From: Escherichia phage BME3
Sequence record: PP239276.1
Strand: one strand, 5' to 3'
Length of the DNA stretch: 64,000 bases
Positions 60,518 to 63,395 of the stretch are shown one piece after another. Each line of letters opens with the position of its first letter. The stretch's first letter is position 1. A model generated the notes under the pieces. It was not told where the DNA came from. It searched no databases and was given only the letters and a program-made list of their open reading frames with translations. The translations under genes were made by a program, and so were the position numbers.

Positions 60518-60593
60518 TGGTCGTGGTAAACGGAGTCGAACCGTTGTTTCTCGATTATCGGTCGAGTGTACTAACCATCTGTACGATACCACA
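60518..60593 (-). tRNA. tRNA, anticodon read as GAU (Ile), CCA encoded
   Basis: cloverleaf folded by hand: 7 bp acceptor, D stem GTAC/GTAC, anticodon stem CTCGA/TCGAG, T-arm AACGG-AGTCGAA-CCGTT; unusual C33. Confidence 0.55.
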
Positions 60594-60598
60594 ATAAT

Positions 60599-60695
60599 TG
60601 GCAGCAAGGTGAGGAATCGAACCCCTTGATCTATGGTTTGGAGCCATATTGAGTACCATACTCTTTTAAATCTACCCGGCTATGAGTTCCTTGAA
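60599..60695 (-). tRNA. tRNA-like, possible Trp(CCA); 5' half aberrant, 5' end uncertain
   Basis: CCA, acceptor 3' strand, T-loop AATCGAA and canonical anticodon arm with loop CUCCAAA; no matching 5' acceptor strand at expected distance. Confidence 0.3.
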
Positions 60696-60739
60696 GTGTC
60701 AATGTAACTTAATCATTACACCAGAAGGGAGGTATTTAT

Positions 60740-60818
60740 TGGAGGCGGGAGTAGGATTTGAACCTACGATCTCCAGCATATGAAACTGGCGAGGACGACC
60801 AGACTCCTCTATCCCGCG
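60740..60818 (-). tRNA. tRNA-Met/Ile2 (CAU), CCA encoded
   Basis: T-arm GTAGG-ATTTGAA-CCTAC, anticodon loop UUCAUAU, D arm with 11 nt loop, 1:72 mismatch. Confidence 0.6.
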
Positions 60819-60833
60819 CAATCTGTAGTAATT

Positions 60834-60909
60834 TGGTTGATAGTAAGAGAATCGAACTCTTCTCGCAATGCCTTATGAAAGCACTCGAAACGCCAGCTTC
60901 ACACTATCA
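60834..60909 (-). tRNA. tRNA, probable CAU anticodon, atypical anticodon-arm register
   Basis: perfect 7 bp acceptor and T-arm AAGAG-AATCGAA-CTCTT, CCA encoded; anticodon arm only folds with 6 nt variable loop. Confidence 0.45.
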
Positions 60910-60997
60910 ATGGCTAACCCTTTATAACCCGTCTTGGCGTGGTATCCTTAACAGGACGGTAGATATCCGTTGCAAACCCTATGATATCTCTTAGATA

Positions 60998-61082
60998 TGG
61001 TAGCTAAGGTGAGACTCGAACTCACAATCCCTTGGGGCAATACGTTCTAAGCGTATCGTGTATACCATTCCACCACTTAGCC
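60998..61082 (-). tRNA. tRNA-Leu (UAG), type II
   Basis: CCA, acceptor, T-arm GTGAG-ACTCGAA-CTCAC, 14 nt variable arm, anticodon loop CUUAGAA. Confidence 0.7.
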
Positions 61083-61158
61083 ATAAAAATACACCACTGT
61101 AAGAAGCCTCAATGTGCTATTGACAGTTAACCAAGTCTACTCCTTGGATGGTGATATT

Positions 61159-61233
61159 TGGTGCAGAGAGATGGTAACGATCCATCCTTTCTACCTTTTC
61201 AGGGTAGCACTAATCCGTCTCAGCTATCTCTGC
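61159..61233 (-). tRNA. tRNA-Phe (GAA)
   Basis: CCA, perfect acceptor, anticodon stem CTACC/GGTAG with loop CUGAAAA; non-canonical T-loop. Confidence 0.55.
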
Positions 61234-61238
61234 AAATT

Positions 61239-61314
61239 TGGTCAGTGCGGCAGGACTCGAACCTGCGACCTGAAGCGTCCAAGGCTCCCACGCTACCAAC
61301 TGCGCTACGCACTG
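61239..61314 (-). tRNA. tRNA-Pro (UGG)
   Basis: CCA, perfect acceptor, T-arm GCAGG-ACTCGAA-CCTGC, anticodon loop CUUGGAC. Confidence 0.7.
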
Positions 61315-61321
61315 TAAATCT

Positions 61322-61396
61322 TGGCTGGAGATCTAGGAATCGAACCTAGTCATCACGACTTCAAAGGCCGTTGCCTTCCCACTAGGCTAATCTCCA
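61322..61396 (-). tRNA. tRNA-Gln (UUG)
   Basis: CCA, perfect acceptor, T-arm CTAGG-AATCGAA-CCTAG, anticodon loop CUUUGAA. Confidence 0.7.
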
Positions 61397-61495
61397 ATAA
61401 AACTAAAAATCACTTAAAAAGAACCGCTAGAGTTTGAAGGAGAAAACCATGAGCGAAAAGAGAAATTTTCTCTAGCGATTCCATTTAAATAATCT

Positions 61496-61570
61496 TGGAG
61501 CGAGTAACAGGACTTGAACCTGCACCTGGAGGGTGGAAACCTCATATGCTACCATTAACACTATACCCGC
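61496..61570 (-). tRNA. tRNA-Gly (UCC)
   Basis: CCA, perfect acceptor, T-loop ACTTGAA, anticodon loop UUUCCAC. Confidence 0.6.
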
Positions 61571-61582
61571 TTAACAATATTA

Positions 61583-61611
61583 CTCTAACATATTATTAGC
61601 CCCTTTGTCAA
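61583..61611 (-). promoter_or_regulatory. minus-strand promoter upstream of tRNA block (TTGACAA - N16 - TTAGAG)
   Basis: reverse complement reads TTGACAAAGGGGCTAATAATATGTTAGAG; predicted start a few nt upstream of tRNA 5' end. Confidence 0.5.
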
Positions 61612-61625
61612 GAGGCTTTTGATAT

Positions 61626-61955
61626 TTATTTTAAAATAGTAGATGAACCACGTCTGTTTAGATATGCAATAGTAAAGTCCAAATCACCTATTTCTTCAGG
61701 TTCCCACTGACCTTCTAAGCCATAACAAGAACAATGATATGCGTGTACTTCATAAAACAAAGATGTTTTCATATCATAAAAATAAACGTGAGATTCACCT
61801 TCATAATATGCACAATCATAAGTGGCAGAAAGAATTACAATGTTATCCTTATCTAACTCTACTTCATAATATCTTTCAACATCTTCAATATGATCAAAAC
61901 CATCGAAAACATTGATATTAAAATATTTCTCTAACTCTTTTTCTGTCACATACAC
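61626..61955 (-). CDS. hypothetical protein embedded in tRNA region
   Basis: 109 aa ORF between tRNA genes. Confidence 0.5.
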   Translation of the reverse strand: MYVTEKELEKYFNINVFDGFDHIEDVERYYEVELDKDNIVILSATYDCAYYEGESHVYFYDMKTSLFYEVHAYHCSCYGLEGQWEPEEIGDLDFTIAYLNRRGSSTILK

Positions 61956-61972
61956 TCCTTTAGAGTTAAAAT

Positions 61973-62047
61973 TGGTGCTCCCACAAGGACTCGAACCCTG
62001 ATAAGTTGCTTACAAGGCAACCGTAATAGCCGTTATACGATAGGAGC
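61973..62047 (-). tRNA. tRNA-Thr (UGU)
   Basis: CCA, acceptor with G-U pairs, T-loop ACTCGAA, anticodon stem GTTGC/GCAAC loop CUUGUAA. Confidence 0.65.
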
Positions 62048-62130: not shown

Positions 62131-62137
62131 ATAATTC

Positions 62138-62222
62138 TGGCGATGGATCAAGGATTTGAACCTTGCTAGAACTTTCGTTCACGGATTAACAGTCCGTCGC
62201 CCAACCACTAGGCCAATCCATC
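62138..62222 (-). tRNA. type II tRNA whose anticodon reads GUU
   Basis: CCA, perfect acceptor, T-arm CAAGG-ATTTGAA-CCTTG, variable-arm hairpin GAAC-TTTC-GTTC, anticodon stem ACGGA/TCCGT loop CUGUUAA. Confidence 0.5.
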
Positions 62223-62229
62223 TTTAATT

Positions 62230-62316
62230 TGGTGCAGGTAGTTGGACTCGAACCAACGAAGCCCAGAAGGGCAAGAGATTTACAGTCTCCAGCAATTGCC
62301 GCTATGCGATACCTAC
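62230..62316 (-). tRNA. tRNA-Tyr (GUA), type II
   Basis: CCA, perfect acceptor, T-arm GTTGG-ACTCGAA-CCAAC, 16 nt variable arm, anticodon loop CUGUAAA. Confidence 0.7.
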
Positions 62317-62321
62317 GTGTT

Positions 62322-62397
62322 TGGTACATCGTGAAGGATTCGAACCTTCGACCTTGGAGTTAAAAGCCCCTTGCTCTACCAACTAAGCTAACGATGT
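62322..62397 (-). tRNA. tRNA-Lys (UUU)
   Basis: CCA, perfect acceptor, T-arm GAAGG-ATTCGAA-CCTTC, anticodon loop CUUUUAA. Confidence 0.65.
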
Positions 62398-62522
62398 ATA
62401 AATTATCTTTAAAATAGCCAGTGTTTGCGGCACTTGACTATGGGATATCGGTAAGATGGTGGGGCCATCTGCCGAAAGTTTACTCTGTTAAAGTAAGATG
62501 ACAAGCTACATTAAAGATAACT

Positions 62523-62608
62523 TGGCGGTAGATGTAGGACTTGAACCTACACGCCGTTTCCGACGACAGTTTAGCAAACTGTTGTGGCTACCATTTCACC
62601 AATCTACC
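62523..62608 (-). tRNA. tRNA-Ser (GCU), type II
   Basis: CCA, perfect acceptor, T-arm GTAGG-ACTTGAA-CCTAC, long variable arm, anticodon stem ACAGT/ACTGT loop UUGCUAA. Confidence 0.7.
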
Positions 62609-62616
62609 GTTCTTAA

Positions 62617-62769
62617 TTATTCAAAACAACCGGAATCTTTTTGTTCTGCTTTTACCATACGAATATTTTTACCATCTTCAGATTGTTGAAGATTAGAATA
62701 CTCATAAATAACTTTATTATCTACAATCTTAACTCCGGTAACAACCTGTCCAATAGTTTTATAATTCAT
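62617..62769 (-). CDS. hypothetical small protein
   Basis: internal ATG at 62769 with AGGAGC RBS; track ORF to 62817 would overlap the next tRNA. Confidence 0.35.
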   Translation of the reverse strand: MNYKTIGQVVTGVKIVDNKVIYEYSNLQQSEDGKNIRMVKAEQKDSGCFE

Positions 62770-62787
62770 AAAGCTCCTAGTTGAATT

Positions 62788-62877
62788 TGGAGGAAGATAA
62801 TGGAGTCGAACCATCACCGTATCGCTACAATGGGCCAGGGTTCAAACCTGGTTGCGCACCGCTGCGCCCTACCTTCC
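62788..62877 (-). tRNA. tRNA-Ser (UGA), type II
   Basis: CCA, acceptor, T-loop AGTCGAA, 19 nt variable arm, anticodon stem CCAGG/CCTGG loop UUUGAAC. Confidence 0.65.
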
Positions 62878-62893
62878 CGTTATCATACTTTAA

Positions 62894-62922
62894 ATCTAAC
62901 ATAAAACTATGTTGCTTGTCAA
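62894..62922 (-). promoter_or_regulatory. minus-strand promoter (TTGACAA - 17 nt - TTAGAT)
   Basis: reverse complement reads TTGACAAGCAACATAGTTTTATGTTAGAT, about 15 nt upstream of tRNA 5' end. Confidence 0.5.
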
Positions 62923-62940
62923 GTAGTTTTTAAAACTTTT

Positions 62941-63022
62941 TGGCCGGGGTGACAGGATTCGAACCTGCATACTCCAATTACTCGGTTAACGCCTGATTAG
63001 AAGTCAGGTGAGATACACCCCG
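62941..63022 (-). tRNA. tRNA-like with Arg(UCU) anticodon arm, apparently lacking a normal D arm
   Basis: CCA, perfect GC-rich 7 bp acceptor, T-arm ACAGG-ATTCGAA-CCTGC, anticodon stem CCTGA/TCAGG loop CUUCUAA; only 7 nt between anticodon stem and 5' acceptor strand. Confidence 0.4.
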
Positions 63023-63092
63023 TTTTCACAGTAACTATAACAAAAAACTAAGTAAATGTCAAGATATTTTTTACTAAATTGCTATTTAAATT

Positions 63093-63165
63093 GAAGCCTA
63101 GTTATGGAATCGAACCATATTTCGTATTTAGTTAGACAAAGCGATCTAACATATTTTTCAGGCTT
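63093..63165 (-). tRNA. tRNA-like, atypical (no encoded CCA; internal hairpin has 8-nt loop)
   Basis: perfect T-arm TATGG-AATCGAA-CCATA; 7 bp acceptor possible only with 2-nt offset. Confidence 0.35.
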
Positions 63166-63202
63166 TGATGGCCTCGGAATTACCAAATACCCTACCAGGC
63201 GT

Positions 63203-63288
63203 TGGTGCAAGTGGAGGGATTCGAACCCTCAATCATTTAAGCGTTGCGTTTTAAGCACAATGTGTATCACCAATTCCACCACACTTGC
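63203..63288 (-). tRNA. tRNA-Leu (UAA), type II
   Basis: CCA, perfect acceptor, T-arm GAGGG-ATTCGAA-CCCTC, 13 nt variable arm, anticodon loop CUUAAAA. Confidence 0.7.
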
Positions 63289-63319
63289 ATATAGGAGATG
63301 CATAGCACCTCCTTTTAAA

Positions 63320-63395
63320 TGGTGGTTCCCCAGGGTTACAATCCCTGCCCTCGACACTTATGAGGTGTGCGCTCTCGTCAGTGAGCTATGGAACC
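63320..63395 (-). tRNA. tRNA-Met/Ile2 (CAU)
   Basis: CCA, 6 bp acceptor, D stem GCTC/GAGC, anticodon loop CUCAUAA, T-stem CAGGG/CCCTG with non-canonical loop. Confidence 0.55.

Follow-up and report, generated by a model that had tools for sequence, protein, structure and literature searches.

How many of the genes in the transfer RNA (tRNA) cluster of Escherichia phage BME3 are ordinary tRNA genes, and what are those that do not fold like one? The question arises from a stretch of 64,000 nucleotides (nt) of this phage (sequence record PP239276.1), hereafter the window, in which a dense array of tRNA genes occupies positions 60518-63395. An earlier note, made by a model from the letters of the DNA, had placed here about 20 minus-strand genes, several of them atypical. 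The best overall explanation, which we consider quite likely on the grounds of sequence comparison, is a tRNA module whose seventeenth gene, named element A, would be an AGA-decoding tRNA-Arg(UCU) built on a plan other than the cloverleaf.

ARAGORN called 16 minus-strand tRNAs, which span positions 60518 to 63395, and no tRNA in the remaining 61 kb of the window. The set comprises Ile-GAU, three tRNAs with the anticodon CAU, Leu-UAG, Phe, Pro-UGG, Gln-UUG, Gly-UCC, Thr-UGU, Asn-GUU, Tyr, Lys-UUU, Ser-GCU, Ser-UGA and Leu-UAA. The Rfam tRNA model, RF00005, found 14 tRNAs at its gathering score, the E-values ranging between 1e-13 and 1e-4. Below this score, and known from ARAGORN only, are Ser-UGA and two CAU tRNAs; one gene, at 62944-63022, was found by Rfam only and was missed by ARAGORN. 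Three more tRNA-like elements, at 60599-60676, 62053-62131 and 63103-63200, were obtained with relaxed ARAGORN searches and folding. The cluster contains 17 credible tRNAs and three atypical tRNA-like sequences, so that the dense minus-strand cluster of the earlier note stands while its count of about 20 genes has to be divided in this way. Asn-GUU and Arg-UCU, which it had left out, are added to the isotypes that it named. The encoded CCA that it had seen in nearly all genes terminates all 17 tRNAs. The note had proposed covariance-model detection as a check of these loci, and 14 of the 17 pass the Rfam gathering score. It was also right about the atypical tRNA-like genes, which became the point of interest.

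Element A, the gene found by Rfam only, is 82 nt long (62941-63022, minus strand). It scores 38.6 bits against RF00005, above the 29-bit gathering threshold, and in the Rfam alignment the D arm is deleted and 20 nt are inserted in the variable region. It has standard parts of a tRNA, namely a 7-base-pair (bp) acceptor stem, a 5-bp anticodon stem with a 7-nt loop that has U33, a 5-bp T stem, a GTTCRA loop and an NCCA end. Read from its 5' end, the acceptor strand CGGGGUG (63022-63016) is followed by the connector UAUCUCA (63015-63009), in which the segment S1 is CUC (63012-63010), and by the anticodon arm (63008-62992), made of the strands CCUGA and UCAGG and the loop CUUCUAA, whose anticodon UCU is located at 63001-62999. 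The chain continues with the spacer CGUUAACC (62991-62984), the segment S1', GAG (62983-62981), and the D-loop-like segment UAAUUGGAGUAU (62980-62969). The T arm (62968-62952), with the strands GCAGG and CCUGU and the loop UUCGAAU, the acceptor 3' strand CACCCCG (62951-62945), the discriminator G73 (62944) and CCA (62943-62941) complete the gene. There is no D hairpin (10-13/22-25) before the anticodon stem, and only 7 nt separate the acceptor and anticodon stems.

What became of the D stem can be read from the relatives of element A. Twenty-eight distinct 82-nt sequences from diverse phages, family A, align without gaps. In their acceptor, anticodon and T helices 99.5% of the cells are paired, and double compensatory changes are found in 15 of the 20 pairs; none of 500 shuffles was as high, and no slid register comes close. 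About 40 nt are invariant across very different phages. The pattern by which family A was collected had fixed the connector, the anticodon loop and part of the extra segment, and this collection bias is lessened, not removed, by seven sequences found by BLAST and by a relaxed scan. Since the invariance of the connector and extra segment comes partly from collection, the relaxed scan and a covariance model were used to find divergent relatives of 78-84 nt. In these, connector nt 11-13 (S1) pair with a segment, S1', which is located downstream of the anticodon arm and directly 5' of a conserved UAA(N0-2)GGA motif. The pairing was assessed with positional rules that were fixed in advance, with no adjustment of single sequences to maximise it. 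Across 63 sequences, 95.2% of the cells are paired and 54 sequences are paired fully; slid registers give 35% or less, and the observed value was reached by none of 2000 shuffles. Nine fully complementary combinations of S1 and S1' occur: CUC/GAG, CGG/CCG, CCC/GGG, CGA/UCG, CGC/GCG, CAC/GUG, CAA/UUG, GCC/GGC and ACC/GGU. In a model-fitted alignment of 52 sequences, all three pairs covary. A hairpin in the variable arm (YCG/YGG, model R1) is the minimum-free-energy fold and fits family A, but in the divergent members it is paired in only 37.6% of cells, compared with 90.3% for the stem that wraps the anticodon arm, and the wrapped-stem model (R2) scores these members 5-14 bits higher than R1. 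The hairpin was rejected, and we regard the predicted wrapped structure of element A as well supported.

The order of segments along the chain is the acceptor 5' strand, U8 A9 N, S1 and one nt, the anticodon arm, a spacer of 3-8 nt, S1', UAAYUGGA, 3-9 nt, the T arm, the acceptor 3' strand, N73 and CCA. Compared with a canonical tRNA, S1, the following nt and the anticodon stem look like residues 22-25, 26, and 27 onward. S1' and UAAYUGGA look like residues 10-13 followed by 14-20, as if the halves of the D/anticodon domain had been swapped. Judged from tertiary contacts in tRNA-Phe (the triples 9-12-23, 45-10-25 and 21-8-14), each new junction in element A would join residues that are already neighbours in the L shape, so that an L-shaped fold is plausible. 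The 3-bp equivalent of the D stem would wrap the anticodon arm and could stack on it as in the normal L shape. UAAYUGGA would carry the equivalents of G18, G19 and A20, and its GGA would stay available to the T loop and to arginyl-tRNA synthetase (ArgRS). The extra 20 nt were also considered as an intron, and the gene as a permuted one that is restored by processing. Introns of bacterial tRNAs are group I introns in the anticodon loop. In element A the termini are normal and the swap is internal, and both candidates were rejected.

Is element A an arginine tRNA? The anticodons of all 63 motif-bearing relatives are those of arginine, with UCU in 56, ACG in four, CCU in two and UCG in one. Bacterial tRNA-Arg identity depends on A20, the main determinant, and on C35, U or G at 36, and A or G at 73 (PMC9976931). 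The family keeps C35 and U/G36. Its discriminator is G in the window copy and mostly G or A elsewhere, with U in a few members. GGA follows S1' in 63 of the 63 motif-bearing members, GGA itself being part of the pattern that defined this set; it is also invariant in the 28 family-A sequences, independently of the pattern that collected them. In the fetched flanks of element A loci, the canonical Arg tRNAs have ACG or UCG and, with one exception, not UCU. Element A is located 1-19 nt from neighbouring tRNAs in several loci.

Comparison of gene neighbourhoods points to the syntenic replacement of a canonical tRNA-Arg(UCU), which is seen three times. Mooglevirus Sf14 has a canonical 77-nt tRNA-Arg(UCU) between flanks homologous to those of Felixounavirus bumzen, where the rewired gene and an HNH gene are exactly in its place. 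Kuravirus phiEco32 has a canonical tRNA-Arg(UCU) and Kuravirus HC-25922 has the rewired gene in a matching neighbourhood; in 45 of the 70 kb of the latter genome it is the only match to the tRNA model. In a T5-like canonical tRNA-Arg, 31 of the 32 3'-terminal nt are identical to those of element A in the window. The genome paper of Felix O1 found only Arg-ACG and remarked that an AGA tRNA might have been expected (PMC3185647); element A would supply it. That element A is a charged, decoding tRNA-Arg seems probable from its retained features and genomic positions, and we infer its transcription, processing, folding into the L shape, charging by ArgRS and decoding.

A search of IMG/VR with the open reading frame (ORF) similar to gp112 of phage phi92 gave only three near-identical loci; relatives were then sought by BLAST against phage records and with DNA patterns. 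BLAST found element A in hundreds of phage records from unrelated groups. Its carriers include Felixounavirus (wV8 and FO1a among them), phi92, Kuravirus, Sugarlandvirus, Mydovirus, Asteriusvirus and PBECO4-like jumbo phages. With a strict pattern, 40 loci were obtained from IMG/VR. When 185,579 bacterial and archaeal species, each represented by one genome, were scanned with it, there was a single match, on a metagenome-assembled contig, so that the family is in effect restricted to phages. In 60 records sampled from 250 that have element A, the annotation tRNA-Arg was never found; five were labelled tRNA-OTHER, tRNA-Undet or tRNA-TERM, and in the rest the place is blank or overlaid by an ORF. 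In some copies no CCA is encoded and the end reads, for example, GCUA or GCAA (among the fetched loci, L010:2485-2597, L017, L026 and L033). In these copies 12-16 bp of continuous pairing between leader and trailer extend the acceptor stem, which hints at a different maturation route. Separately, the covariance model brought out a D-armless candidate similar to tRNA-Ser(UGA) at L035:9-87, with the connector UAUUACA and a long variable arm, which suggests that non-cloverleaf phage tRNAs are perhaps not limited to arginine.

In several unrelated lineages, HNH-type ORFs begin 4-41 nt downstream of element A. In GZ8 and Kamaji, this ORF has HNH_3 and NUMOD4; HNH_3 follows element A in two jumbo contigs, and Felix-like phages have a weak HNH match. 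HNH-type ORFs, and possibly ORFs of other endonucleases, are located downstream of element A at L009:3448-3795, L011:2591-3100 and L014:2584-3147 and in L041, L035 and L037. The window copy has no adjacent endonuclease gene. Either the highly conserved element A may itself be a target of homing, or the rewired allele may be protected from cleavage and be carried along with the endonuclease. Element A may, in addition, escape nucleases for which a normal tRNA core is the recognition feature.

The three atypical tRNA-like sequences are referred to as elements C, D and E. Element C (63103-63200, minus strand), which was identified by folding and by homologues with compensatory changes, combines an acceptor stem of 7 bp, a D stem of 6 bp capped by a 4-nt loop, an anticodon stem of 4 bp with the loop CAUCAAA (anticodon UCA), a long variable arm (about 40 nt) and a T arm. 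In this phage it has UCA instead of CCA, and the window copy has one mismatch in the D stem. Homologues were found in Erwinia phage Hena1, where the gene is annotated as tRNA-sup(tca), and in the N4-like Salmonella phage UTK0002 (L188:1201-1308; L189:1187-1295), and compensatory changes are present in all four stems across three phage families. From a pattern scan of IMG/VR, in which most matches were due to chance, element C appears to be confined to three lineages. It resembles tRNA-Sec (RF01852) in the UCA anticodon, the 6-bp D stem with its 4-nt loop and the long variable arm. However, its 7-bp acceptor stem fails the 8/5 rule and it has A33, not U33; neither RF01852 nor RF00005 matched it at E-values up to 10. 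Element C could be an RNA of the opal-suppressor or Sec type. The stop-codon counts (TAA 56, TGA 6, TAG 6) are uninformative on UGA suppression by element C because the genome is AT-rich.

Element D (62053-62131, minus strand), found with relaxed ARAGORN and by folding (z = -3.3), consists of an acceptor stem and a T arm with an 8-nt loop, and has neither a CCA nor a credible anticodon loop. Across 87 records, Justusliebigvirus and Phapecoctavirus included, its identity is 94-99%, and between genera with this identity element B, described below, is only 75-83% identical and the neighbouring tRNA-Asn visibly differs. Element E (60599-60676, minus strand) is similar to tRNA-Trp(CCA). It was called by relaxed ARAGORN only and scores 22.9 bits with Rfam, where gathering is at 29 bits. 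Trp identity features are A1-U72, G73 and the CCA anticodon. Element E keeps them, as do other phage tRNA-Trp genes, and it has about 7-9 extra nt between the acceptor and D stems and the mismatches C4.U69 and A49.A65.

Element B (62398-62522, minus strand) is a structured RNA of 125 nt, recognised by folding (z = -5.2) and conservation, which is flush between tRNA-Ser(GCU) and tRNA-Lys. It has a long closing stem and three hairpins. Copies of 117-125 nt (such as L006:4001-4129, L007:4001-4119 and L008:7001-7117) are present in 183 phage records, which belong to Stephanstirmvirinae (phi92-like and phAPEC8-like), Vequintavirus (rV5-like) and T5-like phages. The consensus fold has 39 pairs, six of them with compensatory changes, arranged in a four-way junction that a stem of about 17 bp closes. 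None of the listed records annotates element B as an RNA gene, and Rfam has no match for it; across the cluster, Rfam families other than tRNA gave nothing credible. In an IMG/VR pattern scan with mostly chance matches, element B appears to be confined to enterobacterial phages. As RNAs without annotation, elements B, C and D may be considered candidate small RNAs of phages.

The tRNA-Asn(GUU) gene (62138-62222, minus strand; ARAGORN; Rfam 56.5 bits), 85 nt long with G73, has an extra arm of class II type, unusual for Asn, in which GAAC and GUUC enclose a GAAA tetraloop. This arm covaries, being GUUC/GAAC in phAPEC8 and GUC/GAC in the T5-like phage Lindwurm (L006:4221-4306; L008:7892-7974), and Felix-like phages have a normal tRNA-Asn of 76-77 nt. 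As bacterial Asn identity rests on the anticodon and G73 (PMC9976931), the gene with the extra arm is probably still an Asn tRNA. Unusually long Lys, Thr and Gln tRNAs, of 85-92 nt, can be noticed among the ARAGORN calls in other fetched loci.

The remaining features, all on the minus strand, are given in the direction of transcription. A promoter-like site, TTGACA-N18-TAAGAT with TG (63700-63729; 10/12 in the scan), which is probably the first promoter of the module, lies upstream of a small ORF of 88 amino acids (63403-63669; homologue of Phi92_gp110; phrog_15056, E=3e-50). This ORF is just upstream of the first tRNA, which has the anticodon CAU (Met or Ile2), the T loop AUUGUAA and CCA (63320-63395; ARAGORN, below Rfam gathering); an A7.G66 mismatch is also present in it. 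The class II tRNA-Leu(UAA) (63203-63288; ARAGORN; Rfam 57.1 bits) and element C follow. A second site, the TG-extended TTGACA-N17-TATAGT (63034-63062; 11/12), ends 11 nt before the 5' end of element A, and a third, the TG-extended TTGACA-N18-TAGATT (62893-62922; scan), is 15 nt before tRNA-Ser(UGA). This class II tRNA has the discriminator U73 (62788-62877; ARAGORN) and a sub-threshold Rfam match to tRNA-Sec of 35.3 bits. Next are an ORF of 50 amino acids (62617-62769; homologue of Phi92_gp111; phrog_22441, E=2e-39), tRNA-Ser(GCU) (62523-62608; ARAGORN; Rfam 54.2 bits) and element B, then tRNA-Lys(UUU) (62322-62397; ARAGORN; Rfam 68.9 bits) and the class II tRNA-Tyr(GUA) (62230-62316; ARAGORN; Rfam 48 bits). 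After tRNA-Asn and element D come tRNA-Thr(UGU) (61973-62047; ARAGORN; Rfam 56.6 bits) and an ORF of 107 amino acids (61626-61949; homologue of Phi92_gp112; phrog_8792, E=1e-43). The fourth site, the TG-extended TTGACA-N18-TAGAGT (61582-61611; scan), is 11 nt before tRNA-Gly(UCC) (61496-61570; ARAGORN; Rfam 55.1 bits). Between tRNA-Gly and tRNA-Gln there is an interrupted hairpin of about 23 bp with a U-rich tail (61397-61495; z = -4.1); a terminator scan did not call it, and it could serve in processing or act as a (leaky) terminator within the cluster. The last segment consists of tRNA-Gln(UUG) (61322-61396; ARAGORN; Rfam 61.4 bits), tRNA-Pro(UGG) (61239-61314; ARAGORN; Rfam 65.5 bits), tRNA-Phe(GAA) (61159-61233; ARAGORN; Rfam 49.2 bits), the class II tRNA-Leu(UAG) (60998-61082; ARAGORN; Rfam 58 bits), a CAU tRNA for Met or Ile2 (60834-60909; ARAGORN, below Rfam gathering), a 79-nt CAU tRNA with a C1.C72 mismatch, a 5-bp D stem and the discriminator U73 (60740-60818; ARAGORN; Rfam 50.6 bits), element E and, as last gene of the cluster, tRNA-Ile(GAU) (60518-60593; ARAGORN; Rfam 57.3 bits).

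The four promoter-like sites have a perfect TTGACA, a spacer of 17-18 nt and a TG-extended -10 box, and match at 10-11 of 12 positions. In three cases the distance from the end of the site to a tRNA 5' end is 11-15 nt, in agreement with the earlier note, which had seen such motifs directly upstream of tRNAs. It had also placed three small ORFs between tRNA genes; two of them are so placed and the third is the one upstream of the first tRNA. Each of these ORFs matches a PHROG family of unknown function (E 1e-39 to 1e-50), and none had a match in Pfam.

What would such a cluster do for the phage? The anticodons appear to decode mainly the A-ending codons AGA, UUA, CUA, ACA, CCA, CAA, GGA, UCA and AAA, and AUA is probably also read. 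Besides AGA, other A-ending codons matched by the cluster are rare in E. coli. Over 56 long ORFs of the window, the share of a codon among those for its amino acid is 28% for AGA (Arg; 11.0 per 1000), 30% for UUA (Leu), 43% for ACA (Thr), 42% for CCA (Pro), 69% for CAA (Gln), 20% for GGA (Gly) and 16% for AUA (Ile); the corresponding share of AGA in E. coli K-12 is about 3.6% (PMC9965538). The comparison of anticodons with codon usage, which had been suggested beforehand, therefore gives a match with A-ending codons that the phage uses heavily, so that the cluster would supplement the host tRNA pool during infection. In the proposed mechanism, host RNA polymerase would start at no fewer than four promoters of the sigma-70 type and make polycistronic precursors. 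From these, RNase P and the 3'-end-processing enzymes of the host would release 17 tRNAs, with mRNAs of the small ORFs and several non-tRNA RNAs as by-products. The tRNAs would top up the host pool during infection, and they may also back it up if the host degrades its own tRNAs. That the cluster works in this way is very likely.

At the level of the cluster, this is ordinary phage biology that has already been annotated. The region is 99.1% identical to Escherichia phage W22 and 96-98% identical to many genomes of Justusliebigvirus (phi92-like, Stephanstirmvirinae), and at least 80% of it is covered in 55 phage records. Several relatives, phages outra and PATM among them, are annotated with 16 tRNAs in matching order and with the ORFs Phi92_gp110-112; the PATM labels tRNA 001-016 are all inside this cluster. 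The region constitutes the whole tRNA module of a coliphage of the phi92-like group (Justusliebigvirus) and, being annotated in many GenBank relatives, is as a cluster already known. Five 'Campylobacter phage' records (MG065645, MG065650, MG065656, MG065664 and MG065689) are near-identical in this region to phi92-like or Felix-like coliphages and are probably mislabelled or contaminant assemblies. Elsewhere in the window, the GC skew changes from positive to negative near 21-22 kb (within about 20000-23000), which is consistent with a change in the predominant coding strand.

Several points weigh against taking element A as a functional tRNA-Arg of this kind. The locus L033 holds it beside a canonical tRNA-Arg(UCU). 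The invariance of the columns fixed by the collecting pattern is partly a result of construction, and the 52-sequence alignment had been fitted to the model under test. For the window copy, nearest-neighbour energy favours the alternative hairpin (-26.3 vs -21.4 kcal/mol). The fit of the swapped topology to an L shape is a plausible one, argued from known tertiary contacts, and the leader-trailer pairing of the CCA-less copies is unusual for a tRNA precursor. For the cluster as a whole, the codon-compensation and anti-defence roles are inseparable in the present data. The full proposal, according to which element A would be a working, arginine-charged, AGA-decoding non-cloverleaf elongator tRNA, with the D-arm and anticodon-arm segments swapped, that serves the ordinary E. 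coli machinery, is put forward tentatively, at somewhat less than an even chance.

Element A might instead be a conserved tRNA-like RNA that does not decode, acting as a decoy or sponge for an arginine-tRNA-specific nuclease (colicin-D-like), as a punctuation signal for RNase P, or as the target or passenger of a homing endonuclease. The adjacent HNH-type ORFs, the roughly 40 invariant nt, which a target of homing or a cassette of recent spread would be expected to show, the CCA-less copies with long leader-trailer stems and the locus with both genes are in favour of such a role, and phage tRNAs counter tRNA-cleaving defence systems according to one paper (PMC11555353). A decoy, however, would be expected beside a canonical tRNA-Arg(UCU), and at the syntenic slots element A replaces the canonical gene; in the 45 kb of the Kuravirus genome it stands as the only tRNA-like gene. 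It retains what charging and decoding require, namely the 7+5 bp acceptor/T helix, U33, A37, C35, U36, A/G73, GGA and, in most copies, CCA, and the other arginine anticodons among its relatives are more readily explained if ArgRS sets the identity than if one nuclease is the selecting agent. We consider a non-decoding role unlikely, and a decoding tRNA-Arg remains the preferred reading of element A. Decay is another explanation, in which elements A, C, D and E would be functionless tRNA pseudogenes left by the turnover of genes where recombination is frequent. Reports of pseudo-tRNAs from the tRNA clusters of phages are common, Felix O1 being one instance (PMC3185647), and the defects described above (the missing CCA and anticodon loop of D, the insertion and stem mismatches of E, the D-stem mismatch and UCA end of C in the window), together with Rfam scores of C, D and E that are below threshold or absent, agree with it. 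For element A it is excluded by heavy compensatory covariation across phage families. The compensatory changes of element C in four stems and three families, the identity of element D where element B and tRNA-Asn have changed and the Trp identity features of element E argue in the same direction, and for the atypical members taken together decay seems rather improbable.

The main value of the cluster could also be insurance against host defences that cleave or deplete tRNAs, the rewired Arg and the extra-arm Asn genes being variants that escape nucleases. The set includes Lys-UUU, Tyr, Asn, Thr, Gln and Arg, and the structural novelties are located in the tRNA core and the variable region. The isotypes other than Tyr are also hit by known anticodon nucleases. 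tRNA-Tyr itself is a shown target of retron Ec78 and Septu (10.1101/2023.03.15.532788; PMC13096335). Against this, the anticodon set closely follows the phage-enriched codons, which codon compensation alone explains. We know of no defence system that targets the D arm of tRNA-Arg. The two roles are not mutually exclusive. Insurance as the main value of the cluster is doubtful, and supplementation of the host pool, with element A as its AGA-decoding member, is the explanation that we retain.

The element A family is a large, conserved, arginine-specific and almost entirely unannotated group of predicted phage tRNAs with a re-threaded core. If this is true, a natural, widespread and strongly conserved RNA would show that the standard bacterial machinery already uses a non-cloverleaf tRNA, and it would define a second viable way to thread the tRNA core. 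It would explain an annotation gap, as Felix O1-like, phi92-like and other groups seem to be without an AGA tRNA despite heavy use of AGA. Because gene finders mostly miss element A, codon-adaptation analyses that use ARAGORN or tRNAscan counts are biased. The restriction to arginine and the retained GGA offer a direct test of how ArgRS reads A20, and the HNH linkage with the repeated replacement of canonical genes makes a tractable case of tRNA evolution driven by selfish elements or by defence.

How does the cluster compare with known systems? Those of phi92/phAPEC8, rV5, T5, Felix O1 and T4 consist, like this one, of tandem tRNAs on the same strand with encoded CCA and several promoters. 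In large-phage tRNA clusters, small ORFs and homing endonuclease genes are interspersed and the anticodons match phage-enriched codons. The differences between the clusters are not essential ones. There are 17 tRNAs here and up to about 26 in T5-like and Felix-like phages, and this cluster has no HNH gene inside it, unlike its relatives PATM, ZYD and ALITA. Element B can be compared with the T4 species 1 and 2 RNAs (rnaC and rnaD), which are also stable-looking, about 120-140 nt long and flush in a phage tRNA cluster. However, rnaC has a tRNA-like T arm whereas in element B a stem of about 17 bp closes a four-way junction; no meaningful identity appears when the sequences are aligned, the folds differ, and homology with rnaC/rnaD was rejected. 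Permuted and split tRNA genes (Cyanidioschyzon, Nanoarchaeum) share with element A an order of segments that differs from the canonical one. They are circularly permuted about the acceptor ends, and processing restores a canonical tRNA. In element A the termini are normal and the swap is internal, and no scheme of circularisation or cleavage could restore a cloverleaf.

The canonical tRNA-Arg(UCU), with which argU of E. coli is grouped, is among the closest systems known. Element A and the canonical phage gene have in common the 7-bp acceptor, the 5-bp T stem with its GUUCGAAUC loop, A/G73, CCA and the genomic slot. The anticodon loop CUUCUAA is common to element A and to the canonical tRNA-Arg(UCU) of the T5-like Lindwurm and of Sf14, and is also found in the host column of a table in the Sf14 paper; in phiEco32 this loop is UUUCUAA. 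Element A differs in that it has no D hairpin 10-25, its D-stem strands flank the anticodon arm, its D-loop-like motif is at the place of the variable loop, and its length is 82 nt, compared with 74-77 nt. The abstract of a 2024 paper states that all known bacterial tRNAs are cloverleafs (PMC11551756), and our literature search, which left subscription journals largely outside its reach, found no description of a phage or bacterial tRNA without a D arm, nor of this architecture. To ask whether E. coli can use a D-armless tRNA, the same 2024 paper had to engineer one, mini HisT, which the E. coli histidyl-tRNA synthetase (HisRS), EF-Tu and the ribosome accept. Like element A it has no D arm, but it is artificial, results from deletion and not from re-threading, and needed a pnp mutation for stability (PMC11551756). 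Metazoan mitochondrial tRNA-Ser(AGY) and the armless tRNAs of nematodes (PMC4013460) also have no D hairpin, a short connector and an effectively extended anticodon helix. These organellar tRNAs have co-evolved factors and have simply lost the D arm. Element A, by contrast, is arginine-specific and phage-borne and would need the standard E. coli machinery; both strands of its D stem and a GG-containing D-loop motif are kept in transposed positions, with the connector paired to a strand downstream.

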